IMG/VR virus record: IMGVR_UViG_3300012973_000014
Location: 22 to 64,021 of that record
Length of the DNA: 64,000 nt
Direction: 5' to 3' (one strand)
From: a virus
The notes under the pieces are model-generated. The model did not search any database. It saw only the letters and a list, made by a program, of their open reading frames with translations, and was not told the DNA's origin. The first letter of the stretch is position 1. Every line of letters starts with the position of its first letter. Positions 4,412 through 28,736 of this stretch are shown in pieces. A program made the translations under genes and the position numbers.

Positions 4412-4417
4412 AAAAAC

Positions 4418-12300: not shown

Positions 12301-12350
12301 AGGGGGGTAGCCGTGCCCGTTTTGGCCGTTTTTAGCCGTTTTTAGCCACT
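12301..12350. repeat. 3x direct repeat TTTT(T)RGCCR
   Basis: ccgttttggccgtttttagccgtttttagccac. Confidence 0.5.
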
Positions 12351-12720: not shown

Positions 12721-12795
12721 ATAATTGGTTTTAACTTGCACCCGTAAACGGGAGCCACTCAGGCATACCGATATAACCTATAAATATATAATACA

Positions 12796-14488: not shown

Positions 14489-14544
14489 CCAGCCCGAATG
14501 CGGACGGGGGCGCACCTGAACGGGTGTATTGGGTCCGAACGATT

Positions 14545-14706
14545 ATGAGAAAAGAGATGCTACTTCTTGTAGCTGTGTTGTGGTCTGGCGAGGTATGCGA
14601 GGCTGCATTGTGTCCGAACGAGAATGTTGAGGATGCGAAGAACGCTGTTATTGTGAACTACTGCTTACCTTGTGGAGCAGTTAAAGAGTGGAGGATTGAA
14701 AAATGA
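14545..14706 (+). CDS. small secreted or membrane Cys-rich peptide (putative)
   Basis: In-frame Met of ORF 14443..14706. 'MRKEMLLLVAVLWSG' hydrophobic N-terminus, 4 Cys. Confidence 0.3.
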   Translation: MRKEMLLLVAVLWSGEVCEAALCPNENVEDAKNAVIVNYCLPCGAVKEWRIEK

Positions 14707-14789
14707 GACGCAGAGAAGTATTGGAGAACATTGCCCTAACTGTGATTTTGTTGGGCGGTATGTACTTAGTATGTTTGGCTGGGTACTTG

Positions 14790-14813
14790 TTTAACTAAAA
14801 ACGATGTATTATG
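14790..14813 (+). promoter_or_regulatory. class-1 conserved leader cassette TTAACtAAAAacgatGTATTATG
   Basis: One of about 20 copies of TTAACCAAwAA-N(4-9)-GTATTATG, placed immediately 5' of a small ORF start. Confidence 0.55.
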
Positions 14814-15020
14814 AGTGAATTTAAGACCCATGCCACCTTGTGCTTGAGTAATTTTGGTGGCGTTGCTATTGAACTATCTGATACGGGGGAGGCCGTCAGA
14901 TACAAATGGTATGATAATAAGCCGAGCCGTTGGTGCAAGGTGTATTACAACCTTAAGGGCGAACCGTATTTCAAGATGGCGGGCAAAAGGTACTACCTGA
15001 GCGAATTTATGCGGGTGTGA
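14811..15020 (+). CDS. hypothetical early protein
   Basis: 69 aa. Preceded by the class-1 cassette. Confidence 0.5.
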   Translation: MSEFKTHATLCLSNFGGVAIELSDTGEAVRYKWYDNKPSRWCKVYYNLKGEPYFKMAGKRYYLSEFMRV

Positions 15021-15084
15021 AGCCGAACCGGGCACGACTTGGGAGAGTTGTGTCTGGACGAATTAACTAAAACTGTATTGTATT

Positions 15085-15321
15085 ATGGAAATGATGAACA
15101 AATGGGTATACTTCTGTTTCAATTACCCGTACGACTTTATTGAGCAGATTTGGGGTGGAGAGTATATTTGCGACCACCTAAAGGGTAAATTTCAGATGTA
15201 CTATGACCTTGTAGGCAGTACCGGCGTGATGAACAAGTTTTATGCGAACTTGGACAAGACTAATCAAAGAAGGCTGCTGCAGTGGGTTATAGATAACTAT
15301 AACGATGAGCAGAAGTTGTAA
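15085..15321 (+). CDS. hypothetical early protein
   Basis: 78 aa. Class-1 cassette at 15062-15087. Confidence 0.5.
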   Translation: MEMMNKWVYFCFNYPYDFIEQIWGGEYICDHLKGKFQMYYDLVGSTGVMNKFYANLDKTNQRRLLQWVIDNYNDEQKL

Positions 15322-15384
15322 AGCAAGGAGGGTGCGTAGTGATACGTGCCCTTTTTCTATTTAACCAAAACGATAAGAAAAGTT

Positions 15385-15612
15385 ATGAAGACAATCAAAA
15401 TTGCTCCGAACCTTGATGAGATTGAGGTAGGGGCGAACTATGTTTCTACAGAGTGGAACGGTGGTATCAGGTACGAGGCTGAGGGATTGGACCGGTACAA
15501 GGAGGACTATCTGAAGCAGTGTTTCAGTACTGCGATAGCTATGAGTGGCCGACCATGGCAGCTTGAGGCTATATTGAACGACCATTTAGGATTGAAGGGA
15601 GTGGTGAAGTAG
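15385..15612 (+). CDS. hypothetical early protein
   Basis: Start placed at the Met after the cassette (TTAAC at 15361). ORF track 15346..15612. Confidence 0.45.
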   Translation: MKTIKIAPNLDEIEVGANYVSTEWNGGIRYEAEGLDRYKEDYLKQCFSTAIAMSGRPWQLEAILNDHLGLKGVVK

Positions 15613-15673
15613 AACGAGGAGCCGAGGCAGGGATGTCTTGGCTCTTGCAATTATTAACCAAAACGATTGTATT

Positions 15674-15937
15674 ATGCTAAACAGAAATGTAATTGAGGGC
15701 GTGGAAGGACTACGCGAACTAATTATGAGAGAGATTAGAGAACATTTGGCGGACGAATGTGAGGGCGGGCCGGTGGATATTGATATAAAGTTTAATTTGG
15801 ACGGTAACGCAGAATATTTGCGTAGTATTCAATTGGACGAGGATGGTGAAAATGTATTGGTAGTAACCGATACGGGAGTAAACGAGTTGTTCTTATATTC
15901 TCTTGATGAGATGATTAAAATTGTGGATGCGCTGTAG
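15674..15937 (+). CDS. hypothetical acidic early protein
   Basis: Start at the Met after the cassette (TTAAC at 15654). Acidic composition. Confidence 0.45.
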   Translation: MLNRNVIEGVEGLRELIMREIREHLADECEGGPVDIDIKFNLDGNAEYLRSIQLDEDGENVLVVTDTGVNELFLYSLDEMIKIVDAL

Positions 15938-15943
15938 TACTGG

Positions 15944-15971
15944 ACCCTACTTGGTGCGAATCAGGTAGGGT
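15944..15971 (+). terminator. conserved hairpin ACCCTAC-N14-GTAGGGT (copy 1)
   Basis: Identical 28-nt element repeated at 16282-16309. Followed by 'TAC..TTAACC'. Confidence 0.5.
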
Positions 15972-15999
15972 TACTATTATTAACCAAAAACGAACTATT

Positions 16000-16275
16000 A
16001 TGAAAGAGATTGAATTAGGTTCCGATGGGGGAACTATTGCTCTTATGGAATGGATTAGGGCGAACAATTACCCAGCCTTAGATACAACATTTTGTCGGTC
16101 AGCAAGCGGATACTATACTCTTATAGTATCTTCTTACGAACCGACCGAATTTGATTTAGACCTTTCCGATGGGGAGTGGTTTGAATGGAAGGGTATGAAG
16201 AGGCACTTTTGTGGTCTTCCACGAATGTGGGTGATGTATATTGACGGGTATTGGTATTACGCAACGCCTTATTGA
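16000..16275 (+). CDS. hypothetical early protein
   Basis: 91 aa. Cassette TTAAC at 15980. Confidence 0.5.
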   Translation: MKEIELGSDGGTIALMEWIRANNYPALDTTFCRSASGYYTLIVSSYEPTEFDLDLSDGEWFEWKGMKRHFCGLPRMWVMYIDGYWYYATPY

Positions 16276-16281
16276 TGAATG

Positions 16282-16309
16282 ACCCTACTTGGTGCGAATC
16301 AGGTAGGGT
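16282..16309 (+). terminator. conserved hairpin ACCCTAC-N14-GTAGGGT (copy 2)
   Basis: Identical to 15944-15971. Confidence 0.5.
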
Positions 16310-16315
16310 TACGAA

Positions 16316-16382
16316 TTTTTAACCAGCGGCGAACGGCTGTGCTGCGCTCCTACGGGAGTTTAATGGGCCGTGTTGTATTATG
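16316..16382 (+). promoter_or_regulatory. class-2 conserved leader (TTTTTAACCAGC...GCGC...TAATGGGCCG...TATTATG)
   Basis: One of 4 copies (16316, 20066, 26780, 28131) of a roughly 65-nt element with three conserved blocks. Confidence 0.5.
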
Positions 16383-17129
16383 ATGGAATATGTTAGACCT
16401 ACAGAGATGATGAGACTTACTGTTATCAATGGTAATGTTTGCGAAGGAACTATCTGCGGAGTTATCTTGACTATCGTGGAGGGTGATATTGTAATGGACG
16501 GTTACCGATTTAAGCACAATGGCAAAGGGATTATCTTGCCGGCGGATCAGGAGTTCTATTTTGATGAGAATACATTCAAGTTAGGGCAACCTATCATTCC
16601 TGACTGCTCTTGGAACGGCCTGTACAGCCTTGTTGGTTGGGACCGTCCGACCTTGTGGTACTACAAGAATGGTAAGGCAGAGCCATGGAAGTGGAAGAAT
16701 GAGCTTATTTCTTGGGAGATATTGCCTAACTATAACGCTAAGTTGTTGAACGGCTTTATCCCGGATGAGTTATTCGGCGAAGAGAAGGATGTCTATAGTT
16801 GGCACGACCTTATCGTACATAAGGATAACGGGGATATTGAGTTTAAGAAGGCTCCGCTATCTGTATTGCGATTGAATGATAATCAGCAGAAGCTGTTTGA
16901 ACAATTTAAGGCGTTACTTAAAGAGATGACCGATGCTGACATGTTGATTGTTGAAGATAGGGACCGCTGCGAACTGGCGGTATTGAACTGCAGTGAATAC
17001 AGAGTAGAGTTCGAGTGCGGCAACGATTTCGAACCGGCATTTCCGACAGATATGCAGGTTGTTATCCGTAATCATACCTATTATTACGGGGATGGTAGTG
17101 AGCGAATGAACATTTACAAGAAGAAGTAG
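16380..17129 (+). CDS. hypothetical protein
   Basis: 249 aa. Behind the class-2 leader. Confidence 0.55.
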   Translation: MMEYVRPTEMMRLTVINGNVCEGTICGVILTIVEGDIVMDGYRFKHNGKGIILPADQEFYFDENTFKLGQPIIPDCSWNGLYSLVGWDRPTLWYYKNGKAEPWKWKNELISWEILPNYNAKLLNGFIPDELFGEEKDVYSWHDLIVHKDNGDIEFKKAPLSVLRLNDNQQKLFEQFKALLKEMTDADMLIVEDRDRCELAVLNCSEYRVEFECGNDFEPAFPTDMQVVIRNHTYYYGDGSERMNIYKKK

Positions 17130-17193
17130 GTAAACGAACGGGGGCTGGTGCAGAGATGTGCCGGCCCTTACTATTAACCAATAAAATGATATT

Positions 17194-18093
17194 ATGAATT
17201 ACGAAGAGATGTACGAACGAGTTAAAGCTGAACTACAGACTGAGTACGACCTGTGCTATGTAGATTACCGGGACTCTTTTAGTGTCAAGATGGTAGCTGA
17301 ATGTCTTGAGCGAAAGAGTCTTCAACCTTTATGGGAGGAAGACTGCTACTGGGAACATCGGTCTGATGCAAGTTTTGATATTTTGGACAAGATAGGTCTG
17401 AAATTATATAAGGATTACGAGTGGCTTGAGTTTAAACAAGAGTCGTATTTGTACAATGACCTGCGTTACTTGATTCAGGAACGTGATGTAAGCGAACCAG
17501 AGAAAGACTGCTGGATGCAAACGAGGGTGGATGGCAGGGTGTTACTATTCAGTAATTATGACTGCTGGGTTCCGCCGTATGATGCCGGTGGGTTGGATGC
17601 TTTTCATGACTACCTTGAGACCGCTATGAGAGTACTATGCTTGAATCCTAAGAAAGTTAAGGAGGTTTGCAGTGAGTGGACGACTTGCAGAGGTAGGTGG
17701 CCGAATTACCATTGGAGAGATGGTAAAGAGGTGGTGAGTTATGAGGGATTTAGCAAGATATTGCGAGAGTCTTGTTCTTACGGCTTACTATGCTTTGTCG
17801 GCAAGATGAATATGAGCGAGTTATGGGATAAGATTGATAAGCAGGATGAGTTAGTTATCCCTAAGGGAACCACTGTAACTATGTTCAACCATTGGAATGG
17901 TGGTGGCAGCATGGATGATTGTAAAACTCTCAGAGATGTATCTTTGGGAGAAATGAACCGCAGAGCGCAAAAATGTCTTGTGGGAACCGAGTATGACTTC
18001 GTTGAGCTTGAGGTAGATGAGAGAGGTTGCTGTAGAGGATATAGTACCGGTGAGGTGTATGGTGGTAGCTTAAGCGATGATGACTTGTTTTAG
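17194..18093 (+). CDS. hypothetical protein
   Basis: 299 aa. Cassette TTAAC at 17174. Confidence 0.55.
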   Translation: MNYEEMYERVKAELQTEYDLCYVDYRDSFSVKMVAECLERKSLQPLWEEDCYWEHRSDASFDILDKIGLKLYKDYEWLEFKQESYLYNDLRYLIQERDVSEPEKDCWMQTRVDGRVLLFSNYDCWVPPYDAGGLDAFHDYLETAMRVLCLNPKKVKEVCSEWTTCRGRWPNYHWRDGKEVVSYEGFSKILRESCSYGLLCFVGKMNMSELWDKIDKQDELVIPKGTTVTMFNHWNGGGSMDDCKTLRDVSLGEMNRRAQKCLVGTEYDFVELEVDERGCCRGYSTGEVYGGSLSDDDLF

Positions 18094-18156
18094 TAAAACG
18101 CGGCTGTAATAGGGATATTGCAGTCGTGGCGAGTTATTAACCAAAATTGATGTATT

Positions 18157-18417
18157 ATGAAAATCAGAGAAATCAAAGCAAAGGACGGTGCAAGAGAGTG
18201 CCGTATTTTCGTGAGCAGTTGTGTAAAGAACGAGATTGATGATGGCCGTATAGTGAAGGGCTATTGGTATATTGTCAAAGGCGGACAGGTCGGACGATTT
18301 GTGCGAGAATATATCAAAAGCGGTAAGCAGCTGGATAACCTTGAGGATTATGATGTGTTCAATATCAACGGGAGCTGTGATACCAAGGAGTATTTTGCGG
18401 AATTGCTTGCTATGTAA
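18157..18417 (+). CDS. hypothetical early protein
   Basis: 86 aa. Cassette at 18137. Confidence 0.5.
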   Translation: MKIREIKAKDGARECRIFVSSCVKNEIDDGRIVKGYWYIVKGGQVGRFVREYIKSGKQLDNLEDYDVFNINGSCDTKEYFAELLAM

Positions 18418-18424
18418 CGAACGG

Positions 18425-18450
18425 GACCCCGGCAGAGATGTACGGGGTTT
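18425..18450 (+). terminator. intrinsic terminator hairpin with conserved loop GCAGAGATGT
   Basis: gaCCCCGgcagagatgtaCGGGGtttt. Confidence 0.55.
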
Positions 18451-18477
18451 TGCAATGTTTAACTAAAAGAATGTATT

Positions 18478-18735
18478 ATGACACACGAAGACCAACAGAG
18501 GTTTATTGAGCTTGCTAAAAAAGCGAGGTATAATGAGGCTATGGATGAGCTGACCACTTTTGTATGTAATCATGTCGGAGAGGGTTTTAGCGGGCCGGAC
18601 GCCGAGCGAATGGCGGACGACTTCGCACTTCTTGCGGCTTGGATATATGACCGGCTGAACGGCGAGAATCCAAGGGCAAGGAGGAGTGTAACGAACAAGA
18701 TTAGGAAGGCGCTGGGGTACATACCTATGCAGTAG
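18478..18735 (+). CDS. hypothetical early protein
   Basis: 85 aa. Cassette at 18459. Confidence 0.5.
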   Translation: MTHEDQQRFIELAKKARYNEAMDELTTFVCNHVGEGFSGPDAERMADDFALLAAWIYDRLNGENPRARRSVTNKIRKALGYIPMQ

Positions 18736-18799
18736 TGAACAAGGAGGATGCGGGGAGGCCGGCATCCTCTTGCTATTAACCAACTAAATTTTATGTATT

Positions 18800-19120
18800 A
18801 TGGAAAAAGAATGGACAGAAGCAGGTATTAAGTATGTATTTGAAACTATCAAGAAGTGGATTAAGACAAGAACCTTCAAGACTCTAAAGAATGGAACCAT
18901 AGGTGGCTCTATGACGATTAAACAAATGGAGAATCTTCTTGGCTTGCCTTACTCGAGTTCCGGTAGACATGCGGGATTATGGATATGTAACGACGTTGTA
19001 TACTTGGACCTTGAGTGTAAGTATCATATCGCTGGGTTCTGTATGGATGTACGAGGATGCGTCTATGCTGAATGTTTTGATAAAGATGAAAACGAGTTGT
19101 TTATACCTATAAATAAGTAA
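18800..19120 (+). CDS. hypothetical early protein
   Basis: 106 aa. Cassette upstream. Confidence 0.5.
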   Translation: MEKEWTEAGIKYVFETIKKWIKTRTFKTLKNGTIGGSMTIKQMENLLGLPYSSSGRHAGLWICNDVVYLDLECKYHIAGFCMDVRGCVYAECFDKDENELFIPINK

Positions 19121-19123
19121 GTT

Positions 19124-19318
19124 ATGACTATCAAGGAATTACGAAAAATGTTCTGGACTGAAGTAGCCACAGATGAGATGCGTAAGGAGTATCGCAGTAG
19201 GAAAACGCAGAATGACTATTCTACCGATGTACGATGTGCTTGGGTGGATTTTACTGACCATGCAGTAAAGAGCGGGTGGATAACACAGAAGCAGTGTGAT
19301 GAACGAGCCACCTTGTAA
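19124..19318 (+). CDS. hypothetical early protein
   Basis: 64 aa, 3-nt spacing after the previous gene. Confidence 0.4.
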   Translation: MTIKELRKMFWTEVATDEMRKEYRSRKTQNDYSTDVRCAWVDFTDHAVKSGWITQKQCDERATL

Positions 19319-19382
19319 CTATGCAGCGACCTCGCAGGGATGTGGGGTTGTTGGCGAGTATTAACTAATTAAAATATGTATT

Positions 19383-19604
19383 ATGAGACGACAAGTAGAG
19401 AAAATCCCTTCTTGGGCTATAAATGCAATTATTAATAATGATTGTACAGGGTTGGAATATAGTGAGATAGATTTAATACAGAGATGGTTTGAGGATACGG
19501 GCTATGACTATGTTTGTACTCCGGATTCGGACCCGTATTTTACTAATTACCCTGCATTTGGACTACCTTGTGATGTTTATGACTGCATCTGTGTAACCTT
19601 GTAG
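19383..19604 (+). CDS. hypothetical early protein (Cys-rich C-terminus)
   Basis: 73 aa. Cassette at 19361. Confidence 0.45.
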   Translation: MRRQVEKIPSWAINAIINNDCTGLEYSEIDLIQRWFEDTGYDYVCTPDSDPYFTNYPAFGLPCDVYDCICVTL

Positions 19605-19661
19605 AGCTGACTCAGCCCGAGTGGTATTGGGTTGGGTTACGAGTATTAACCAATAAAAATT

Positions 19662-20036
19662 ATGAAAATGGAACTAACATTAAAAGAGATGGCTCAGATT
19701 GAGAGAGCTAGAGTAGAGGCAGCTAAGAAAGAAGAGGAGAGAATCCGTGAAGAACGACTTAGGCTAAAGACGGAGGTTGTAGATGTGTTATTCAATGAGA
19801 TTAAGGATTTTATCTCTACTGTGAGAAAAAGTGATAATCCTAACAATCCATACCTTTTTATACCTATAAAAGGTTATCCTCTTGATGGGCTATGGGGGTA
19901 TACAATATACCCCGAGACAACGCTTGACTATTTCATTGTACATTATAGAGATAGTAGTTGTTCTTACGCCTTCGACTATGAGAAACGCATGAATAAAAGA
20001 GAGTTTGCGGAGAAGGTGCTAAGCTTGTATTTGTAG
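19662..20036 (+). CDS. hypothetical early protein
   Basis: 124 aa. Cassette upstream. Confidence 0.5.
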   Translation: MKMELTLKEMAQIERARVEAAKKEEERIREERLRLKTEVVDVLFNEIKDFISTVRKSDNPNNPYLFIPIKGYPLDGLWGYTIYPETTLDYFIVHYRDSSCSYAFDYEKRMNKREFAEKVLSLYL

Positions 20037-20134
20037 AACCAATCGGGCGTCAAACAGGCGCTCACTATTTTTAACCAGCACCGGACAGGGAGCGTGCGCA
20101 TCTTGTGGAAGATGTTAGAGGCCTGTTGAGTATT

Positions 20135-20791
20135 ATGAAAAAAGAGAGCGAGAAGCTATTGAACGAGATTTATGTAATGACCGAGGACCAGAAGATTAAG
20201 GACAAGGTGTTGCAAATTTTAAGGATTGAAGCGCCTCAACCGAACGGTAAGTTTGATTACTTCAAGTATGTAAGCAAGGAACTTGCGAGACCGATTATGA
20301 CTGGTGTATTCCATGATAATGGTTTTAAGGTTGCGAGCGATTGCCATATTATTGTAGCTATTAAGGACTACTACGATATAAGCGAATTGGAAGGCAAGGT
20401 CGTAGGCAAGGACGGCGCATTCATTGAGGGTAATTATCCAAAATGGAGGACTGTTATTCCTGACTTTACCTCTAAGATGCATGATTACAGGACTGAAACG
20501 GTTAAGATTGATTTTGATAAATGGGCCGAGTTCATGAAGGCATATAAGGCTGATAAGAAACTAAATTTAGAAAAGCGTTGGGTTAAGATTGGAGAACAGT
20601 ATTATAGTGTGGATTTGTTCAACTTGCTTACTATCGCCATGAGGAGGATAGGGACGGATGAGATTACTAATTCTTGGAGTCAGTATGGTGGTACTGCCGG
20701 CGTATGCAACGGGAGCGACGGTAGTATTGCACTCTTGATGCCAGCGATGAGAGCGTATGACATAGATGATGACCAGTTTTACGTATTCTAG
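20135..20791 (+). CDS. hypothetical protein
   Basis: Start at the Met after the class-2 leader 'GTATTATG'. ORF track 20105..20791. Confidence 0.5.
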   Translation: MKKESEKLLNEIYVMTEDQKIKDKVLQILRIEAPQPNGKFDYFKYVSKELARPIMTGVFHDNGFKVASDCHIIVAIKDYYDISELEGKVVGKDGAFIEGNYPKWRTVIPDFTSKMHDYRTETVKIDFDKWAEFMKAYKADKKLNLEKRWVKIGEQYYSVDLFNLLTIAMRRIGTDEITNSWSQYGGTAGVCNGSDGSIALLMPAMRAYDIDDDQFYVF

Positions 20792-20857
20792 CAGTATGAG
20801 GGGGCGTTATCCGAGAGGGTGGCGTCTCTGCTATGATTAACTAAAAAAAGAAGTATT

Positions 20858-21382
20858 ATGAAAAAATTTGAAGACCTAACAAGTAGTGAGTTGTGGAAGT
20901 TAAGAGATGAGATTACATTAAACTCTATCTATGTAGCTGACTATGAGAACTCTTTCCGTTTTAATGCAAAATGTATCTGTGCCTTTTTCGATGGTTATGT
21001 AGATTACCTCTTTGAACTAGCTGAGGAGGATAAATTCCCAGTTGACGATGAGTTTGCTGTATTTGATAAATACGACACAGAAGATAATCTTTATAACTGG
21101 TTTTGCTGCTATGACGATTTGTCTTGGGTTGAGAGCGATATCAAGGTATTCCGCTTCTCCCAGACTTACAAAAAGACCGTTACATGGCGCGAGTATTACG
21201 ATATTGAGGCTGAATCATTGGAGGAGGCTTTAGAAAAGGTTGAGGAGTGTGATGGCGACTTGGATGACTGCGAAGATGCTGAGTTTGTTGAGGCCGAACA
21301 GGAGGAGGAGAATGATGTCGATGCATATCAGAGACGAGACATTGATACCATTTATGACCCGGACGGAGAGGAGGTGGAGTAG
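20858..21382 (+). CDS. highly acidic protein, candidate DNA-mimic/anti-restriction
   Basis: 174 aa. C-terminal 70 aa very D/E-rich ('EECDGDLDDCEDAEFVEAEQEEENDVD'). Confidence 0.5.
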   Translation: MKKFEDLTSSELWKLRDEITLNSIYVADYENSFRFNAKCICAFFDGYVDYLFELAEEDKFPVDDEFAVFDKYDTEDNLYNWFCCYDDLSWVESDIKVFRFSQTYKKTVTWREYYDIEAESLEEALEKVEECDGDLDDCEDAEFVEAEQEEENDVDAYQRRDIDTIYDPDGEEVE

Positions 21383-21446
21383 AGCAAAGCAGGACCGAGC
21401 AGTGATGTTTGGTTCTGTGCGATGTTTAACCAAAAAGATGTGTATT

Positions 21447-21704
21447 ATGATAAAAAGAACTGAAATTAAGAAAGCTGTATCTGACTTGGAAGAGATGCTC
21501 TATTTCTATGTAAAAGAACAACTTGAAAAGAACGGTGATATTGATATCTCCGTACAACTTGTTAGTAATGATTTTGATTGTTACGAAGCACAAAGACTCT
21601 TCTTGAGTGAAATCGGCGAACCTATGGTAGCCACTGATATGGAGCACCTTGAGTTTTGGGGTCTTAACCTTGAGGATATGCTGGTGATTTTTGAGAATAT
21701 ATGA
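21447..21704 (+). CDS. hypothetical acidic early protein
   Basis: Start at the Met after the cassette (TTAAC at about 21432). Inside ORF 21240..21704. Confidence 0.45.
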   Translation: MIKRTEIKKAVSDLEEMLYFYVKEQLEKNGDIDISVQLVSNDFDCYEAQRLFLSEIGEPMVATDMEHLEFWGLNLEDMLVIFENI

Positions 21705-21705
21705 T

Positions 21706-21734
21706 AATTAACCCTTACTTGAGCGATTGAGTAA
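21706..21734 (+). terminator. hairpin ACCCTTACT-N10-AGTAAGGGT, same family as 15944/16282
   Basis: Followed by TACGAATTATTAACC. Confidence 0.5.
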
Positions 21735-21769
21735 GGGTTACGAATTATTAACCAAAAAAACGAATTATT

Positions 21770-22126
21770 ATGAGTATTAAAGAAAAAATTGAACAGCAGT
21801 TTATTGCAGATTTTGATTTGGATATCTTCCTGAAATTTGTAGAGGACCAATTAAGGAAGCATGGCAATGCCGAGATAGGATTGGAATTTGATAGGTCGAA
21901 TAAGTCATTAAAATCAGCTCCTTTCCAAACAGAGGGGTATTTTACTTCTAAGAAGTGGCCTACTTTTGAAAGAGCGCGCAAAAATTATTACTGGAACTCT
22001 AATTGCCAAATACCGCATCAGTTAGTCCCGTATGTCAAAAAGCAGTTAACGGAGCAAGGACTTAAAACTTCGTGCAAAGGGGCGTGCGGTTACGATACCT
22101 ATGACATTCTTGTTGTGACTATGTAG
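21770..22126 (+). CDS. hypothetical early protein
   Basis: 118 aa. Cassette upstream. Confidence 0.5.
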   Translation: MSIKEKIEQQFIADFDLDIFLKFVEDQLRKHGNAEIGLEFDRSNKSLKSAPFQTEGYFTSKKWPTFERARKNYYWNSNCQIPHQLVPYVKKQLTEQGLKTSCKGACGYDTYDILVVTM

Positions 22127-22224
22127 CGAACTGGCAGGGATGATGCGAATTATCTCTGCTTACCAATTATTAACCAACCCGAACGCGTGAGGGTGCTCCG
22201 AGAGGAGTTATGGCGCGTATAATT

Positions 22225-22530
22225 ATGAAAAATAGTCAAGATTTGTACGCTATGTACAATGTTTTGGTTTCTGATGCCAAGGAGAGTATTAGGGACATCT
22301 TGAGTAAGCAACCTAAACAGAGGGTTATAGTGGATATGTGGGTTGTTGCGGATTATCACGAAGGAGCTGAAAGGGAAGCTGTTACCGGTATTCAACTAAG
22401 GGATGGTATGATAGAGCTTATCCTTCCCGACGGCGACATTGTGAGAAGCAAAAACGTATTGAACAGCGAATGGCTCTACATCTTAGAATGCGTTGAGTAT
22501 GAACTAGCTGAGAAGGAGGGAAAGTTATGA
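22225..22530 (+). CDS. hypothetical early protein
   Basis: Start after 'TATAATTATG'. ORF track 22210..22530. Confidence 0.45.
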   Translation: MKNSQDLYAMYNVLVSDAKESIRDILSKQPKQRVIVDMWVVADYHEGAEREAVTGIQLRDGMIELILPDGDIVRSKNVLNSEWLYILECVEYELAEKEGKL

Positions 22531-22853
22531 GCAAAGTAACATGTCTCTGCTATGGGCAGGAGCGGACTTTCAAGAGCAGGAAGGCTGCTATAGACTTTTA
22601 CGCTGAGGCGATGTTTGCAACAGAGGGAGCTGAATCGGAGAGGTATAGAACCATCTTGAGTAAACTGTACCGGGGCGATAAGGTGTGTAGTGATGAGGAA
22701 ATCAGTTGGGCTGGATTAGCTGCGGCTGGAGAGGAGTTTTACCAGCAAGTAGAGGAACGGGGAGTTAAGTTTCGTGATGATGAGCACGAGCAGGAAGCTC
22801 TGTTTGACTTTATCGAGCAGGTAAAGATGTACGGAAGAGCGGAGGTGAGGTAG
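22527..22853 (+). CDS. hypothetical early protein
   Basis: ATGA overlap with the upstream gene. 108 aa. Confidence 0.45.
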   Translation: MSKVTCLCYGQERTFKSRKAAIDFYAEAMFATEGAESERYRTILSKLYRGDKVCSDEEISWAGLAAAGEEFYQQVEERGVKFRDDEHEQEALFDFIEQVKMYGRAEVR

Positions 22854-22921
22854 CGTATGCGGAGTCGAGTAGAGATATTCGGCTCTGTACTATGTTTAAC
22901 CAATTAAAAAATGAATGTATT

Positions 22922-23251
22922 ATGAAGAAATGTGAATCATGGAGCGATGTAGAGCAAATTATAGCTCCTTTTGTCAAGAGTTATTTTAGCATGGACGACG
23001 AGGTTGTACCGACATTCAAGGATAGTCTTGCACGGGTAGGAAATTCCTTCACTGGATATGACAGGGTAGTCTCGTTTCAGACTAAAGAGGGTGTTATCGG
23101 CGAGGTTAGGAAACCGGTAACGAATGGCTATGGAGAGGCTTATAGAGATAGATGTAAAGATGGGTTTGTGCTGGGACTTCTTGGTAAGAACAATAAATGG
23201 ATATATGGCCCTGTAGAGCACATTAAGAGTACGATTGAGCTTGCTAAGTAG
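22922..23251 (+). CDS. hypothetical early protein
   Basis: Start at the Met after the cassette. ORF track 22892..23251. Confidence 0.45.
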   Translation: MKKCESWSDVEQIIAPFVKSYFSMDDEVVPTFKDSLARVGNSFTGYDRVVSFQTKEGVIGEVRKPVTNGYGEAYRDRCKDGFVLGLLGKNNKWIYGPVEHIKSTIELAK

Positions 23252-23314
23252 TATTACTCCCTTGAACTCTGACAGGTTCTTGGGGGACGAATAACCAATA
23301 AAAAATTAAGTATT

Positions 23315-23605
23315 ATGATAAAATATGTATGGGTAGATGACCGAATTACTGGTAAACATACCTATGAAGTTGATATTGAGGATTTGCAGGACCTTTTAGA
23401 TTCTCTTAATGCCGTCATATATTATAAAAAGGTTTTTTATGAGAGGCTGTCTGATGTTCCACTAGAGGTTGAGCGTGAGCAAATCTGTAGCTATGGGCTT
23501 CCTACTAATCTTTATATCACAATGGCTCCTACTATAACAATAGTACCAAAGGGTACTACTATAAGGAAATGGTACATTTTTGAGGAGTTTGTGTTTCCTA
23601 GATAA
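23315..23605 (+). CDS. hypothetical early protein
   Basis: 96 aa. Cassette variant ATAACCAAT. Confidence 0.45.
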   Translation: MIKYVWVDDRITGKHTYEVDIEDLQDLLDSLNAVIYYKKVFYERLSDVPLEVEREQICSYGLPTNLYITMAPTITIVPKGTTIRKWYIFEEFVFPR

Positions 23606-23714
23606 GATATAGCCCGCCTGAGCTTTATCAGGCTTGTTTGTTTGTTTGTTTTCATAGCCCCGTACCGCTGGGAAGTGTTGCGGGGTACAATTATTAACCA
23701 TTAAAAGAAGTATT

Positions 23715-24011
23715 ATGGAAAGACCTAAATTTAAAGAAGAGCGGATTATGTTTTATACTAAAGCTGAGTTGAATAGAGAACTCTTGTGGTGGGAATGTCG
23801 ACTCTCTAATCTTAAATCTGGGATAAAAGATTATCGAGACCAGAAAGACTGGGAAGTTAATCAGGCTATAATGATGGCTAAGCATGCCATACAAAACACA
23901 CGGGCTTTGTTAAACTTAAATTTAGATGAGTATTATTTGCAAGGTTCAAAGGTGGTAGCTATTACCACTATAGCAGAGAAGCGTGATGACTTAAAGTATT
24001 ACTTCACATGA
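23715..24011 (+). CDS. hypothetical early protein
   Basis: 98 aa. Cassette upstream. Confidence 0.5.
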   Translation: MERPKFKEERIMFYTKAELNRELLWWECRLSNLKSGIKDYRDQKDWEVNQAIMMAKHAIQNTRALLNLNLDEYYLQGSKVVAITTIAEKRDDLKYYFT

Positions 24012-24054
24012 AGTGGGGTAATGCACTGATTGTTAACTAATTAAAAAAAGTATT

Positions 24055-24333
24055 ATGAATAGAAAACCATGCGTGTTTATAAAGGAGACACAAGAAAACC
24101 CTACAGCTGCGGTGTTGGTTGTACGGTTTGATGATTTAGACAAGATAGGTCATACTAGATTTGAAATAGATGGTAAGTTACACATTCTTACCCATCCTAC
24201 TACTGCCGGTATAGAGTCTATCCTACTCAGGAATATCTTGGCTATTAAAGGATATTCTATTATAGATGAGAGAGATTTTGTGTGGGAAGATGGAGCCATA
24301 GATGTTGAATTTGTAACTGATATGCCTTATTGA
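24055..24333 (+). CDS. hypothetical early protein
   Basis: 92 aa. Cassette upstream. Confidence 0.5.
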   Translation: MNRKPCVFIKETQENPTAAVLVVRFDDLDKIGHTRFEIDGKLHILTHPTTAGIESILLRNILAIKGYSIIDERDFVWEDGAIDVEFVTDMPY

Positions 24334-24349
24334 TAAAGGAGGACGAGTA

Positions 24350-24700
24350 ATGGATAAACAATTTTTAGACTTAAAGACGCGGATAGAAAACATGTCCACT
24401 GAGAAGTTCGTGCAGTGGATGAACGAGGTGTTCTTGAATCGTAATGACCACGGGTATTACTGCAAAATTCACGAGGTAGATGATGATAAATATTGGTCGG
24501 ACTATATGCGACCTATAGGGGCTGAGATTGCCATTGGCATCGCGAATGGTGTCGAATGGGGCCGTTTTAATCGCGGAGAGAGATATGTTATGTATGTAGA
24601 ATATGATGATAATTTCATCACTTTTGACACCAAGGAGCAGTTCTTTAACGAGATTTGGCCCTTGGATGATATTATTTATGAAATGAATTGTAGGAGGTAA
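24350..24700 (+). CDS. hypothetical protein
   Basis: 116 aa. Shine-Dalgarno-like AAGGAGGA upstream instead of the cassette. Confidence 0.5.
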   Translation: MDKQFLDLKTRIENMSTEKFVQWMNEVFLNRNDHGYYCKIHEVDDDKYWSDYMRPIGAEIAIGIANGVEWGRFNRGERYVMYVEYDDNFITFDTKEQFFNEIWPLDDIIYEMNCRR

Positions 24701-24779
24701 TATGAACAGAGCCGGATGCATACAGTTTACCAAGGGGTATCAGGATGATATCTTCTTGGATATAGGTAGTTAGGTCCAG

Positions 24780-25190
24780 ATGAAATCATTTAAGCTGGGC
24801 CTTGCTTTTGATATCCTGAATAACTTGCCTCTGCAGGCATATAACTTTGATTACGGGTATCATACAGACTTGTCTCCTTGCGCCCTATTCTTCAATCCTA
24901 TGATGCTGTACCAAGCCATTCAAACAGTAATGACGAGTGTGCAGATACGTTCAGGTGTTGGGGAAGACGGCGTTCTGGTCCGTAACAAGAAGGAACTTAC
25001 CAAGGCGATAATTGCCGGACACAAGGTGATATACACCGTCAAGCCTAAGTGTAAATCTCTGGCAGAACAGGCTGAGTTTTATATGGAATTATGCGAGTAT
25101 ACGGCGGTGATTGAACGGTATATATACAAGGTGGCAAGGAAGAGGATGTTCAAGATGTTTAAAGTTATGATGAGTGGGTCGGAGCAGTGA
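24780..25190 (+). CDS. hypothetical protein
   Basis: 136-aa ORF. Confidence 0.45.
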   Translation: MKSFKLGLAFDILNNLPLQAYNFDYGYHTDLSPCALFFNPMMLYQAIQTVMTSVQIRSGVGEDGVLVRNKKELTKAIIAGHKVIYTVKPKCKSLAEQAEFYMELCEYTAVIERYIYKVARKRMFKMFKVMMSGSEQ

Positions 25191-25229
25191 TGTTCCTTCC
25201 CTTCCAATTTTTAACTAAAATGAAGTATT

Positions 25230-25424
25230 ATGGAAACGAAAGAATGCAAGCAATGCCGAATAACACGCCCTTTGAGCGACTTTTGTATAAGGTTTGGTGT
25301 TATATCCAACACATGTAAACATTGTGGAAAAGCGTTAAGGAGGGAACGAAAGGAGTTTATTAAATCTATTATGCCAGCTGTGCTAAAATTAAGGGAGGAC
25401 TTAAGAAATGCCATCAGGAGATAG
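25230..25424 (+). CDS. small zinc-ribbon protein (paralog of 27213..27527 N-terminus)
   Basis: 'METKECKQC...CKHC'. Cassette upstream. Confidence 0.45.
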   Translation: METKECKQCRITRPLSDFCIRFGVISNTCKHCGKALRRERKEFIKSIMPAVLKLREDLRNAIRR

Positions 25425-26475
25425 ACCTGCAAAGAAGGTTGTTTGCGCTATTTGTGGCGTAGAGTTTTGGACTACGGGTACTAATACAAGGTACTGCGAT
25501 AATATCGCTTGTCGTAATGAAGCATCCCGGATTTCTGCTAAGAGGTGTTCTGAGAAGAAAGACGCAGATAAGATGAAGTACAAAGATTTGTATGACAAGG
25601 TTATAAAGGACGGTATAGACTGGGATTTACCAGCGACTTTGGATAAAATTACTGAAGCGATTAAACTCGTAGACGATTTATCTAAAATGATTAATGGTAA
25701 GTATTTAAACATGTCTATTACAGAACTAAAAGAAGCTTTGGTCATCTATAAGACAAAAAGATGTAATAGCGGTACATTAGAAACGGGTATTCCTGAAGTA
25801 GATGATTATGTAAGAGATAATATAATGGGTTTTATCGACTCATTATTTGATTACCAACGCTATTCATTGAAAGATATGGTTGATTGTTGCAGCCGTTTAT
25901 ATTTAGACAATACCCCTAACTATACATTATCAGAGGAAGATGCTAATTCTGGTAAGCCTTATAAATACTATGAGATTGTATATTTGAGCGAATTAGGTAA
26001 ATACCGTTTTCGTCAACTCAACGCTGGCGGACTTATAGAGGACTATTCGGGTAAGTGTTGTAATAAAGAGTGCCCATATAATTTTGAACCTTCTTATAAA
26101 TATTCATGGGAAAGGGGTCGTGGATGTTCTCTCATCTGCAACCAAGATGGCTCCCGCAGGTCATCTATTACACAAGGACGTTGTTCTTTATTTATAAGGT
26201 GTGAGTATAGAAGGCTGGTGGATGATAAGCAGAGAGCTATGAAAGCCTGTAGATATCATATTGCGAGAAGGTATTTAAAATACACCGTAGATTTTGAAAT
26301 TGTGAGAGCTTTACGAGAGTTATTCTTTTTAGAAAAGCTTCCTAATAAGAATGTTTCATCTCGTATGGTAAAACTGATTAGAGAAAATTGTGAAACTTTT
26401 ATAAAGAAAGATTTTTATTCTAAAAATAAGAAACTCATTGATAGATATAATTACTTACACAAAAAAACATTCTGA
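25408..26475 (+). CDS. hypothetical protein with N-terminal zinc ribbon
   Basis: 355 aa. 'CAICGVEF...YCDNIACRNE'. AAGGGAGGA upstream. Confidence 0.5.
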   Translation: MPSGDRPAKKVVCAICGVEFWTTGTNTRYCDNIACRNEASRISAKRCSEKKDADKMKYKDLYDKVIKDGIDWDLPATLDKITEAIKLVDDLSKMINGKYLNMSITELKEALVIYKTKRCNSGTLETGIPEVDDYVRDNIMGFIDSLFDYQRYSLKDMVDCCSRLYLDNTPNYTLSEEDANSGKPYKYYEIVYLSELGKYRFRQLNAGGLIEDYSGKCCNKECPYNFEPSYKYSWERGRGCSLICNQDGSRRSSITQGRCSLFIRCEYRRLVDDKQRAMKACRYHIARRYLKYTVDFEIVRALRELFFLEKLPNKNVSSRMVKLIRENCETFIKKDFYSKNKKLIDRYNYLHKKTF

Positions 26476-26478
26476 ATT

Positions 26479-26739
26479 ATGAAACCAGTAAACGAAAAAT
26501 CACTATTACATCACTTGTTTGAGCAGATGGATAAATTAGACAAGGGTGAAATTACTACCGAGCGAGCTGTTGCTCATGCTAAATTAGCAAATGAAGCCAC
26601 GAAATTATTCAAGCAGGAAATGGACCGAGCAAGGTTGTTTATGGATTTGCAAGACCATGCAGCCAAGACTGGTCAAATGATTGGGCTTAGAGAGTTAGCG
26701 TCAAAAGGATTTGATGATACGACCAAGGTGATTGGGTAG
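26479..26739 (+). CDS. hypothetical protein
   Basis: 86-aa ORF. Confidence 0.45.
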   Translation: MKPVNEKSLLHHLFEQMDKLDKGEITTERAVAHAKLANEATKLFKQEMDRARLFMDLQDHAAKTGQMIGLRELASKGFDDTTKVIG

Positions 26740-26835
26740 AACAAAGAGACTGGGACCTAATCGTCCCTTTCTCTGCCATTTTTAACCAGCACGGAGCCGG
26801 TGTAGTGCGCCTAAATAGGTAATGGCCGGATGATT

Positions 26836-26979
26836 TATGAGACAACAATTTGTGCAGTGCAGGTATCGCTACCAAGCATTAAAGGAATGCCCTTGGAGTA
26901 GTAGGGTTGCAAAAGTGAACGGTGGCTATATGTGCTTTGAATCAATTAGTGATTATTATACATGGAGGAATCAGAAATG
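26836..26979 (+). CDS. hypothetical small protein (47 aa)
   Basis: Read by hand behind the class-2 leader at 26780. Below the ORF-track size cutoff. Confidence 0.3.
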
Positions 26980-27210
26980 AACAAACAAAGAAGAAAGCGT
27001 TTAGAAGATGTTGTGTCCCGCCTTGAGGAATGCATGTCCGACTTGGAGTTTATCAAGGAAGAGGAGCAGGAGGCTTATGATAACCTACCTGAGTCAATCC
27101 AGTACTCAGAAAGGGGCGAGTTAATGCAGGAGATTGCTGATGATATAGATTATGCCATTAGCGATTTGGACCAAGTAATCGATAGTGTTAATGAAATAAT
27201 AAATAAATAG
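26962..27210 (+). CDS. small acidic helical protein
   Basis: 82 aa, D/E-rich. Confidence 0.45.
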   Translation: MEESEMNKQRRKRLEDVVSRLEECMSDLEFIKEEEQEAYDNLPESIQYSERGELMQEIADDIDYAISDLDQVIDSVNEIINK

Positions 27211-27212
27211 TT

Positions 27213-27527
27213 ATGGAAACAAAAGTATGTTCAGTGTGCGGTCAAGAGTTACCTCTTGAGGATTTCGTGAAAAATAGTAGATGCAAGGATGGGTATGGGG
27301 CTCATTGCAAGAAGTGTCATAACAAGAAATACCCTTATCATTATAAGGATAAAGCGAATAAGAAGGTTGAAGTTAAGGATGCTCCGGTTGTCTCTGATTA
27401 TGTAAAGAGAGAACTTGAGCAGAATAATCTGCTCGTCATTCCTCCACGCTTACTTATAGCAGCGTTGAGGTATCACGGTTATCGTGGTGAACTGCAGAAA
27501 GTGACAGTAGAGACTGTCGTTATTTAG
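27213..27527 (+). CDS. zinc-ribbon protein (paralog of 25230..25424)
   Basis: 'METKVCSVCGQELPLEDF...CKKCHNKK'. Confidence 0.45.
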   Translation: METKVCSVCGQELPLEDFVKNSRCKDGYGAHCKKCHNKKYPYHYKDKANKKVEVKDAPVVSDYVKRELEQNNLLVIPPRLLIAALRYHGYRGELQKVTVETVVI

Positions 27528-27577
27528 CAAGGGCTGGTGCGACGGCTTACAAGTATTAACCTTAAAAGATAAATGAT

Positions 27578-28093
27578 ATGGAATTATTGGAAACTATTGC
27601 TTACGAGCATGGATTGGATTTGATTGAAACGACTTCGGATGGAACCGGTTATCCTCGTGATTTGAAGTATGCTGTTATCGGTTTTGAAACCTTTGACGAG
27701 GCTCAGGAGTTGGCGGACAGGTATGGATTGACTGTTCGGGAGTTTACCAGACGTGATGGTTGGCAGCTTTGGGTGAGAGGTGGAAAGATGTTCGGGGAGT
27801 ATGATTATGAGAAAGTAATGGGCGAGGGGTATCCAAACGAAGTTATTAGAACGTATCGTCATACTGATGCTGAAGATGTTATATCCGATTTGAGAGAGCA
27901 CCTGCAGTATGCCAGCTTGCGTGATATGAAAATCCTGATTGAGAACGCTGAGGAGGTCTTAGAGAAGTTAGATGGCTGTCAACCGGATGAGTTTATTGTA
28001 ACATGCGCCGGAGAGTATGACGGCACTTATCATTGCAAAACCATGTCCTTCGCCTACGACTCTTCCCGATACGCAATCGGAATTGCGGAGTAA
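27578..28093 (+). CDS. hypothetical protein
   Basis: 171 aa. Cassette at 27559. Confidence 0.5.
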   Translation: MELLETIAYEHGLDLIETTSDGTGYPRDLKYAVIGFETFDEAQELADRYGLTVREFTRRDGWQLWVRGGKMFGEYDYEKVMGEGYPNEVIRTYRHTDAEDVISDLREHLQYASLRDMKILIENAEEVLEKLDGCQPDEFIVTCAGEYDGTYHCKTMSFAYDSSRYAIGIAE

Positions 28094-28187
28094 AAATAGG
28101 GCCGAGATGGCGAAAGCTGTCTCAGCCCACTTTTGTTAACCAGTGCCAAGCGGGGTGCGCACGCCCTTTTAGGGTTAATGGCCCGTA

Positions 28188-28637
28188 TTGCCTATGCAAG
28201 TATTCATTCCTTATGCAAGTCCGTTTGATACGGCAATGGCATTAAAAGGAGATAGACGCTTCTTAAAACAGATTCAAGAAACAAGACAGATTCTCTCTGC
28301 TATCTACGACCCGACAAGAGGATACGCTAATCATCCTGTGACTAAGATGTACAAGAATCATACTCAATGGCTTTATCTGTATCTCATGGTGTTTGAGTTT
28401 GTCAGAGACAACAATCTGATATCAGCCCGGTTCACTTCATTCTGCGCTGACAGATGCAGACCCGAGTGGATGACTGATGAGCTATGTGACCAGCATAAGA
28501 GACGCCTGTATACCAAGAATCCGCAGCGTTACCCACATTGGGCTCATCTTGGTACATCGCTGGAAAATTGGTATGTAGTGAACGGGGAGGTAAAAAAGTA
28601 CATTAATGGCAAAATAATTTTGCAAAATAAAAACTAA
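28188..28637 (+). CDS. hypothetical protein
   Basis: 149 aa. Behind the class-2 leader. Confidence 0.5.
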   Translation: MPMQVFIPYASPFDTAMALKGDRRFLKQIQETRQILSAIYDPTRGYANHPVTKMYKNHTQWLYLYLMVFEFVRDNNLISARFTSFCADRCRPEWMTDELCDQHKRRLYTKNPQRYPHWAHLGTSLENWYVVNGEVKKYINGKIILQNKN

Positions 28638-28736
28638 CCTATTAACTTTGTAAGAAAATTTGAGATATGACACTATTGTTTATTATATGGGGAATCGCGT
28701 ATTTCTGCGAGGAACTGATAAATGGAGGTAAATAGT

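Follow-up and report, generated by a model that had tools for sequence, protein, structure and literature searches.

We analysed a 64,000-nt stretch of viral DNA (positions 22 to 64,021 of IMG/VR record IMGVR_UViG_3300012973_000014; hereafter the window), in which copies of a repeated cassette stand before the small genes of an early array on the + strand. The window is a nearly whole siphovirus-like phage genome, encoding a terminase, a major head protein, a tape measure protein of 1628 amino acids (aa) and a tail protein of 2534 aa, together with a P4-type primase, a C5 methylase, a helicase, a lysozyme and a serine recombinase. The nearest cultured phages were the Parabacteroides phages PF672P1 and PF672P2, with about 35% identity in terminase and primase. 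Canonical Bacteroidia promoters (TTTG-N19-21-TAnnTTTG) were found at the module borders of the window, indicating that the host is a member of the Bacteroidales. Pfam matches were nearly absent from the array proteins, the exceptions being DUF6926 and Pyr_excise, and nearly all of these proteins are ORFans. The features of the array and of the region in front of it are collected in Table 1.

Table 1 Features of the cassette array and its surroundings, in window coordinates. PK, P1 and P2 are the helices of the pseudoknot leader; E, expect value; ORFan genes are those of the array.
Feature	Position	Strand	Details
Type-P1 twister ribozyme (predicted)	13391-13452	+	RF03160, 40.6 bits, E 6e-8
Conserved non-coding leader, ~0.8 kb	13453-14242	+	Invariant core ~13790-14000; alignment of 4 relatives
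Array	14486-28196	+	26 junction cassettes (20 short, 6 long) before ORFan genes; ~34 genes in span
Long-form leader	14486-14547	+	Box ATAACCA overlapping upstream gene's stop codon; ATG 14545; model R1 51.2 bits, E 3e-10
Canonical Bacteroidia promoter, TTTG-N19-TATGTTTG	14747-14777	+	Regular-expression scan
Short cassette	14792-14813	+	Canonical promoter upstream in place of GNRA hairpin
Short cassette	15064-15087	+	Hairpin ~15030-15057
Short cassette, GTTATG variant	15362-15387	+	Hairpin 15322-15358, GUGA loop
Short cassette	15655-15676	+	Hairpin 15617-15646, GGGA loop
Short cassette	15981-16002	+	Hairpin 15943-15972, GCGA loop
Long-form leader	16320-16382	+	PK GCGG/CUGC, P1 ACGGCU/GGCCGU, P2 GCUCC/GGAGU; ATG 16380; 71.2 bits, E 6e-15
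Short cassette	17175-17196	+	Hairpin 17140-17169, GAGA loop; orthologous gene of contig L279 has long form
Short cassette	18138-18159	+	Hairpin 18099-18128, GGGA loop
Short cassette	18460-18480	+	Hairpin 18422-18452, GAGA loop
Short cassette	18777-18802	+	Hairpin 18742-18771
Short cassette	19362-19385	+	Hairpin ~19324-19352, GGGA loop
Short cassette, shortest spacing (15 nt)	19647-19664	+	Hairpin 19608-19639
Long-form leader	20072-20137	+	PK GCAC/GUGC, P1 GACAGG/CCUGUU, P2 GCAUCUU/AAGAUGU; ATG 20135; 55.2 bits
Short cassette	20838-20860	+	Hairpin ~20801-20828, GAGA loop
Short cassette	21427-21449	+	Hairpin ~21389-21418, GUGA loop
Short cassette	21749-21772	+	Hairpin 21709-21740, GCGA loop
Long-form leader	22171-22227	+	PK ACCC/GGGU, P1 ACGCGU/GCGCGU, P2 GCUCC/GGAGU; ATG 22225; 43.9 bits
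Cassette-less class, GGAGG-type motif and ATG	22510-22529	+	Overlaps upstream gene's stop codon
Short cassette	22897-22924	+	Hairpin 22858-22889, GAGA loop
Short cassette, box ATAACCA	23292-23317	+	Hairpin 23257-23286
Short cassette (TTAACCAT)	23695-23717	+	Hairpin 23657-23686, GGGA loop; 3' of separate U-tract terminator 23616-23652
Short cassette	24034-24057	+	Hairpin 23996-24024
Cassette-less class, further cases	24336-24352, 25393-25410, 26964-26979	+	
Short cassette	25212-25232	+	Hairpin ~25175-25201, GUGA loop
Long-form leader	26783-26839	+	PK GCAC/GUGC, P1 CCGGU/GCCGG, P2 GCCU/AGGU; ATG 26837; 62.2 bits
Degenerate short cassette (TTAACCTTAAAAGATAAATGATATG)	27557-27580	+	
Long-form leader	28137-28196	+	PK GUGC/GCAC, P1 GCGGG/CCCGU, P2 GCCCU/AGGGU; ATG 28194 of Pyr_excise glycosylase gene; 49.2 bits

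The pattern TAACYA-N(6-20)-TTATG matched 21 times in the window, with 19 matches on the + strand at 14792-25232, while 100 dinucleotide shuffles gave a chance expectation of 1.71 ± 1.34 and a maximum of 6. TTAACYAA matched 25 times against 8.25 ± 2.56 expected (18 matches on the + strand at 14791-25218), and 19 of the 35 TATTATG matches, where 15.1 were expected, were start codons of the array. The repeated cassette that an earlier reading of the same DNA (the original prediction) had described before small genes thus lies far above the shuffled background. All 21 copy positions listed there correspond to a real copy within 0-7 nt; the exact TTAAC starts shift, among others to 18776, 19646, 20837, 21426, 21748, 22170, 22896, 24033, 25211 and 27556, the copy placed at 22168 is a long form as described below, and the one placed at 23297 lies at 23291 and reads ATAACC rather than TTAAC. 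The TATTATG noted at the terminase start is present at 62303-62309. The original prediction made no mention of upstream RNA hairpins or of the long form, and its treatment of the cassette as a single unit had to be given up: there are three separable modules, an upstream hairpin, a TTAACCA box and a start-codon context, and the long forms keep the box with the hairpin and TATTATG with the ATG.

To describe the modules, cassette statistics were taken over 67 distinct cassettes, found in the window and in seven related contigs. At the junctions, a hairpin of 10-14 bp, G.U-rich and GNRA-capped, lies 2-10 nt 5' of the box. The stems averaged 11.5 bp, G.U pairs made up 200 of 770 pairs (26%), and GNRA tetraloops were found in at least 44 of the 67 cassettes. 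The mean folding energy was −19.0 kcal/mol for the + strand RNA versus −8.6 kcal/mol for the complement, and the + strand was the more stable in 67/67. Stable only as + strand RNA, the hairpin is therefore selected as such, with transcripts running through the hairpins. Terminator-like sites numbered 27 versus 11.3 ± 3.1 expected, and several of them are cassette hairpins, whose tails are mixed A/U in the window and its relatives (clade A). In a second group of phages introduced below (clade B), a U-tract is absent after the hairpin, and separate strong U-tract terminators coexist with the cassette hairpins.

The box logo reads w-T-T-A-A-C-Y-A-A-w-A, in which T, A, A and C were invariant in 67/67 cassettes and were followed always by Y and then, in 63/67, by A. 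In the short forms the spacing from TAAC to ATG was 15-25 nt, with a mode of 19-21 nt, and that from the box to TATTAT was 9-15 nt; in the long forms the latter exceeds 50 nt.

At six junctions the box stands 54-63 nt from the ATG, and a structured RNA of about 50 nt lies between them. Its parts follow an H-type order: TAACCA, 5' arm of the pseudoknot helix (PK; 4-6 nt), GA, P1 5' arm, GNR, PK 3' arm, P2 hairpin, (U)UAAUG, P1 3' arm, 8-11 nt, AUG. A covariance model was built on P1 and P2 only, the PK helix not being modelled, and it retrieved 36 copies (35 distinct), every one on the + strand, in the window and seven relatives (E 2e-7 to 5e-15); exactly six of them were in the window, and no copy was found in clade B or in the Parabacteroides phage. 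The results showed that the PK helix was 95.6% paired, with double (compensatory) changes at 4/4 pairs and the variants GCAC/GUGC, GUGC/GCAC, GCCC/GGGC, ACCC/GGGU, CCCC/GGGG and GUGGC/GCCAC. P1 was 81.7% paired with 5/5 pairs covarying, and shuffle and slide controls were far lower. As the alignment of the covariance model mis-registers P2 (57% paired), P2 rests on a structural parse with a shuffle control, in which P2 was found in every copy and the 35 copies scored 25.5 versus 7.8 for shuffles. All three helices covary across the 35 distinct copies in 8 related phage sequences, and the A-B-A'-B' order with compensatory changes in both helices identifies the element as a predicted member of the H-type pseudoknot class. 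None of the six window copies gave an Rfam match at E up to 10 or at gathering scores, and a scan of IMG/VR for the long element returned chance matches only. The pseudoknot leader is a new covarying element belonging to no described family, with six paralogous copies per genome. For the same gene, the form of the leader may differ between phages (short at window 17175, long at L279:2517), and the same pseudoknot was found before different genes (window 22171 versus L346:7532).

The long form also indicates where the RNA 5' end lies. The box still adjoins the hairpin when the pseudoknot is inserted, and the pseudoknot helix begins at the first nucleotide 3' of TAACCA. Because a covarying helix starts right after TAACCA, the 5' end of the message, produced by initiation or by cleavage, must fall in or before the box, which rules out a -10/-7 element from which transcription starts 5-7 nt further on; read as a -10 element, it would put the start site within the covarying pseudoknot arm. 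The earlier idea of a -7 element producing near-leaderless messages was therefore not sustained, the leader being about 15-20 nt in the short form and about 55-60 nt in the long form. Its statement that the cassette is no complete sigma-70 promoter was borne out: a TAnnTTTG/TTTG element is lacking, and sigma-70-type -35/-10 sites, 16-18 nt apart, were not enriched (33 at 11500-29000 versus 41.3 ± 5.3 in shuffles). The Bacteroidia -7 element TAnnTTTG (TAHHTTTG) stands 4-5 nt before the start site, and no TTTG appears in the 67-cassette logo; alignment of wATTATTA to this element gave mismatches at two near-invariant positions in either register. Neither a -33 TTTG nor AT-rich -18/-28 tracts were found, this space being filled by the GC-rich hairpin of variable sequence, which in clade B abuts the box. 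The only full Bacteroidia promoter within the array was the one at 14747-14777. By the promoter-to-start-site spacing rule of PMC6847099, the first short box (14791) is about 8-9 nt past the expected start site of this promoter, the same layout being seen at L344:1854, and this box is thus inside a 5' untranslated region (UTR).

Functionally, the closest analogue is the T4-type promoter-early stem-loop (PeSL) cassette. PeSLs are units of a small stem-loop and an expression signal before single ORFans in the hyperplastic early region of T4-type phages, and they carry a consensus host sigma-70 promoter with -35, -10 and AT-rich upstream element (PMC2839356, PMC4122927). Here, too, a repeated stem-loop with an expression signal precedes the ORFans of a hyperplastic region. 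In both systems whole cassettes are inserted or deleted between related phages, and recombination could plausibly take place at the repeats. PeSL stems are polyG/polyC, whereas the present hairpins are GNRA-capped and G.U-rich and belong to a phage of a Bacteroidales host; in place of a host promoter consensus there is a conserved box of 7-10 nt at or after the RNA 5' end. Because the host-consensus promoter is missing, the cassette works like a PeSL without being one.

A non-canonical promoter would be one explanation of these features, with the box as a core that includes the start site, the hairpins as terminators, and each cassette starting a transcript between TTAACY and the A that follows. 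Host RNA polymerase would then be redirected by an unrecognised phage or host factor, like T4 gp55 on a single -10-type element. The arrangement, in which a terminator-like hairpin comes first and a motif then lies about 20 nt ahead of the ATG, is the classical PeSL layout, box position 5 was a pyrimidine in 100% and position 6 an A in 94%, the pseudoknot would begin at +2 of such a transcript, and a weak wATTAT occurs at -6 to -1 relative to the box in clade A; in addition, cassettes follow true terminators at 23616-23652 in the window and at L349:3693-3718. We regard this explanation as a serious rival, though less likely than the RNA-level punctuation proposed below. The Bacteroidia consensus and the AT-rich tracts are missing as described, the abutting hairpin of clade B leaves no room for a -10-like element, and canonical TTTG...TAnnTTTG promoters are used elsewhere in the same phage. 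The hairpins are selected on the RNA strand and those of clade B are without U-tracts, a predicted ribozyme stands at the head of the unit, a real promoter lies upstream of one box, and no factor common to the two clades was detectable. No sigma factor or RNA polymerase was recognised among the phage proteins, and a virion RNA polymerase or phage sigma factor was for this reason rejected as reader of the box; the 2534-aa open reading frame (ORF) matched a tail-protein PHROG and had no sequence match to any solved structure. The layout also differs from N4- or crAss-type virion RNA polymerase promoters, since no giant virion RNA polymerase was recognised and the hairpins are stable on the non-template (RNA) strand only. 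A sigma-54 reading of TGGC..TTGCA before some boxes was discarded by inspection, its spacing being wrong, and the closest cultured relative, phage PF672P1, was dismissed as a user of the box, having ordinary TAnnTTTG promoters without it. Literature searches on the box and on crAss-like early promoters found nothing relevant.

We next consider the start-codon context. Anchored on the ATG, A was found at -14 to -11 in 42, 59, 57 and 46 of the 67 cassettes and at -3 in 58; T stood at -4, -2 and -1 in 53-64 of 67, and the second codon was A-rich. In Bacteroidia, A at -14 to -11, especially -12 and -13, and A at -3 are the determinants of initiation without a Shine-Dalgarno (SD) sequence, as reported in Flavobacterium johnsoniae (Baez et al. 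2019, PMC6847099). Although much more uniform than the initiation regions of the host, with T at -4, -2 and -1 nearly invariant and an ATG often at -7, the cassette's 3' half is a near-perfect instance of this type, so that the suggestion of a translation-initiation element for a host without SD use fits this half well. The A-run after the box is the -14 to -11 motif, which explains the spacing from box to ATG, and the 3' half is an idealised SD-free start site of an already known kind. The unpaired probability of -14 to -11 was 0.87 in the short forms versus 0.27 in the long forms, where the P1 3' arm covers -9 to -15, and the value of 0.27 was reached even before counting the pseudoknot. Low structure near the start codon was accordingly seen in the short forms and not in the long forms. 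Many cassettes of both clades also have an out-of-frame ATG 7 nt before the start codon (ATGTATTATG or ATGTCTTATG; for example 14804-14806 and 18150-18152), which is unexpected given the reported depletion of AUG around the start codons of Bacteroidia (PMC6847099).

The question arises whether translation could account for the box itself. In that case UUAACCA would serve the SD-blind Bacteroidia ribosome as an upstream enhancer or standby site, comparable to the 'epsilon' element UUAACUUUA of the T7 gene 10 leader. The distance from box to ATG is fixed in the short forms of both clades, the A-run behind the box is the known determinant just described, the invariance of the box across clades is expected of a host ribosome feature, and exact-motif matches in Bacteroidota genomes were mostly located in the 5' UTRs of real genes, 74 of 120 ATGs opening an ORF of at least 50 codons. 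We consider a purely translational role improbable, since in the long form the box is 54-63 nt from the ATG and still adjoins the hairpin, the late and structural genes of the same phage are without the box, and an A/U-rich landing pad of the S1 type would not be expected to have invariant C residues. Over about 1 Mb of genome loci, mostly from Bacteroidota, 4.4% of TAACYA copies were placed before ORF starts versus 2.2-3.5% for permutations of the motif; with this marginal enrichment it was rejected as a general host signal upstream of start codons. A positional profile contaminated by the anchor matches was left out of account for the box.

The array genes fall into two expression classes, as had been proposed: a GGAG-type motif was found before 0/20 cassette genes versus 4/8 cassette-less array genes. 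The GGAGG-type sequences pointed out before 24350 and 25408 are present, and others stand before 22527 and 26977. Across the window, AAGGAGG-type SD sequences precede a minority of genes, at 60545, 56377, 42857, 8660 and 7986 (− strand) and at 22527, 24350, 25408 and 26977 (+ strand), and the genes so preceded include that of the major head protein. Such sequences are odd in this phage, because the ribosomes of the host class are reported to be SD-blind unless they are without bS21 (PMC13000457).

The comparison with related phages showed that hairpin, box, start context and pseudoknots are kept. An IMG/VR search with the major capsid protein found no close relatives, megablast against cultured phages gave no close relative, and blastn of the 34-nt consensus found no cultured phage with multiple copies. 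Homologues of a 249-aa array protein led to the contigs L275-L280 and L344-L348, with 64-85% identity, whose gene content is mosaic and whose gene order is conserved. This presence/absence mosaicism and the leader swaps are compatible with recombination between cassettes; the unit is a portable module for expressing the ORFan genes of a hyperplastic early region. Array length ranges between about 3 kb in L276 and about 14 kb in the window. At L276:9905-10003 and L277:9705-9802, a short cassette and the first codons of its ORF are fused to a pseudoknot copy without its own TAACCA box, and these hybrid junctions resemble a scar left by recombination between cassettes. The array end is always followed by a gene for a serine recombinase (resolvase/invertase), at 28722-29498 (+) in the window with its own canonical promoter (28619-28650), and at L275:12859-13602, L276:11581-12324 and L344:8575-9315.

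Hairpin and box could on these grounds be a DNA-level site for cassette exchange, integron-attC-like or used by the serine recombinase behind the array, and their closeness to start codons would be incidental. The mosaic gene content with its kept order, the leaders exchanged between genes (the pseudoknot shared with L346, the hybrid in L276) and the position of the resolvase gene agree with such a role, and TTAACCAAAAC is similar to Gin/Hin half-sites. It is nonetheless a highly improbable one. G.U pairing and a strand asymmetry of 10 kcal/mol are marks of selection on RNA and not on duplex or template DNA, the box has no dyad partner half-site, and its spacing to TATTATG varies. The attC core GTTRRRY (R' pairing with RYYYAAC) is unmatched, TTAACY having C at the fifth position and lying outside the stem; a serine recombinase was found but no tyrosine integrase. 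Clade B has a PDDEXK nuclease instead of a recombinase beside the array, and homologous recombination at repeated junctions of 20-30 nt, as in PeSLs, suffices for the mosaicism.

Scans of IMG/VR, GTDB genomes and JGI metagenomes for TTAACCAAAA-N4-9-GTATTATG returned almost only single chance matches, and a re-count of loci from the exact-pattern scans revealed contig L213 (FUFK010817231.1). Together with the IMG/VR contigs L349, L353 and L357/L352 it forms clade B, for which no protein shared with the window was detectable. Clade B arrays contain 7-15 junctions of the form short GC hairpin (UUCG or GNRA loop), GGTY, TTAACCA, A/T-rich segment, (A)TGYCTTATG. As their hairpins abut GGTY-TTAACCA and lack a U-tract, read-through by RNA polymerase is to be expected. 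Both clades have an identical box, whereas the spacing from hairpin to box differs, as does the ATG-proximal core, GTATTATG in clade A versus TGYCTTATG in clade B. The invariance of the box in a second clade without shared proteins points to a host factor, and the reader common to both clades would most simply be a host component. T4 RegA reads early start sites; by analogy, the difference in the core suggests an extra reader specific to each clade, and this core may additionally be read by a phage factor such as a RegA-like repressor. A non-coding region of 1.3 kb precedes the array of L349, and the PDDEXK (DUF3799) nuclease gene comes after it.

Upstream of the array, 29 nt past the stop codon of gene 12796-13362, the predicted type-P1 twister ribozyme was found. 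The alignment was full-length (model positions 1-68), with the UUAA, GC, CGGU..CAA.CCCG, GUAAA and GC.GAG segments of the conserved core aligned, and the score was below the Rfam gathering cut-off (40.6 versus 67.2 bits). The element is conserved at L275:1637-1695 and L346:476-530. Judged by these matches, it is a putative self-cleaving new member of the twister-P1 class (RF03160), which here heads the transcription unit containing the array and is not part of a cassette. A conserved twister at the head of the unit suggests that RNA cleavage, by a predicted ribozyme, is used there. The conserved leader behind it is GC-rich, with direct repeats GGGGGCGGGTATCTTATACCC (two copies) and ATTGCACCCGTT (three copies) and with the blocks TTTCCCGTTA and TGAACGGGTGAACG invariant in 4 relatives; it gave no Rfam match and is a candidate structured non-coding RNA.

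In the cassette as a whole, the start-site module is explained by known biology, the hairpin is a typical RNA hairpin, and the box has no known reader. For the array we favour RNA-level punctuation of read-through early transcripts, with a probability of about 0.42. Each copy would be a three-module gene junction acting as RNA on the + strand. The hairpin would close the upstream message, as a 3'-end stabiliser or weak attenuator, and the box would set the 5' edge of the next message, with a host-encoded factor cutting the polycistronic read-through early transcripts endonucleolytically in or just before it. The new 5' leader would present an optimal SD-free start site, with an unpaired A-run at -14 to -11, A at -3, U at -2/-1 and AAA as second codon, and the clade-specific core (A)UGUAUUAUG may double as an operator for a phage factor. 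In the six long junctions, the pseudoknot after the box would sequester -14 to -11 and give a second mode of translation, down-tuned or switchable. Cleavage rather than initiation at the box, a host-encoded reader and repression of translation by the pseudoknot are the steps that we infer.

Several points weigh against RNA-level punctuation. The true U-tract terminators in the window and at L349:3693-3718 stand before cassettes (23657-23717 and L349:3740-3781), and a gene downstream of them needs read-through or a new promoter. The transcription start site rule accommodates the Y-A step at box positions 5/6 just as well. Typical sites of RNase E, G and Y are degenerate, and we know of no Bacteroidota endoribonuclease with a 7-nt UUAACCA specificity. 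The argument for a host factor rests on partial clade B contigs.

Punctuation by processing between early genes has a precedent in T7, where RNase III sites are stems of about 20 bp with an internal loop. The cassettes resemble these sites in having hairpins between consecutive early genes, and the proposed messages would likewise end in a 3' hairpin and begin with a short defined leader; the stems here, in contrast, are 10-14 bp with tetraloops, and the invariant box lies outside the stem. For the long form, the preQ1-II and SAM-II riboswitches and the T4 gene 32 leader are pseudoknots that sequester the initiation region. An H-type leader pseudoknot with its 3' arm over the ribosome-loading segment is shared with all three, and a hairpin embedded in loop 3 with preQ1-II, whereas the present element has few invariant unpaired positions (GA after the first arm, UAAUG before the last) and its copies stand before unrelated ORFans.

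A broader proposal can be put forward with due reserve, and we think it less probable than not by some way. The hairpin and UUAACCA box would be recognised by a Bacteroidota system, itself undescribed, that determines mRNA 5' ends, by a sequence-specific endoribonuclease or by initiation not directed by the primary sigma factor, and unrelated phages would exploit this system for their ORFan cassettes. The pseudoknot would be a new class of cis-regulatory RNA, either a ligand- or protein-responsive translational switch or a 5'-end-protecting fold, and the twister and the 0.8-kb leader RNA would be further parts of this RNA-processing programme. That a 7-nt box is invariant in unrelated phages implies a host reader with sequence specificity. 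Little is known of the expression signals of Bacteroidales phages, whose hosts rely on neither sigma-70 promoters nor SD sequences. An SD-free start site of textbook quality is useful for annotation and for Bacteroides synthetic biology, a twister in a defined transcript context is a concrete setting for asking what twister ribozymes do in phages, and the cassettes explain how ORFans are swapped between related phages without loss of expression.

Some further features of the window were noted. The 1.1-kb divergent intergenic region at 11689-12795, with the replication operon (− strand) on one side and the early + strand unit on the other, is filled with GGTAGT/ACTACC iteron-like repeats and may be an origin or operator region. 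At 4418-4493 (+) a tRNA was found by Rfam (42.2 bits, above the gathering score) and not by ARAGORN; upstream of it are a -7 box of canonical type (TATCTTTG, 4316) and, at about 4384-4412, a hairpin resembling a terminator, and L276 has a tRNA at the equivalent place. Pairing of an antisense small RNA with the box was considered for the motif TTGGTTAA at 4370, between this -7 box and the terminator and upstream of the tRNA gene, and was rejected because the motif is absent from the equivalent L276 region. The terminase large subunit, running from 62307 to the window end, is unusually long (912 aa in the sibling contig L029), and its N-terminal part also matches DnaC-like and primase/helicase ATPase PHROGs.

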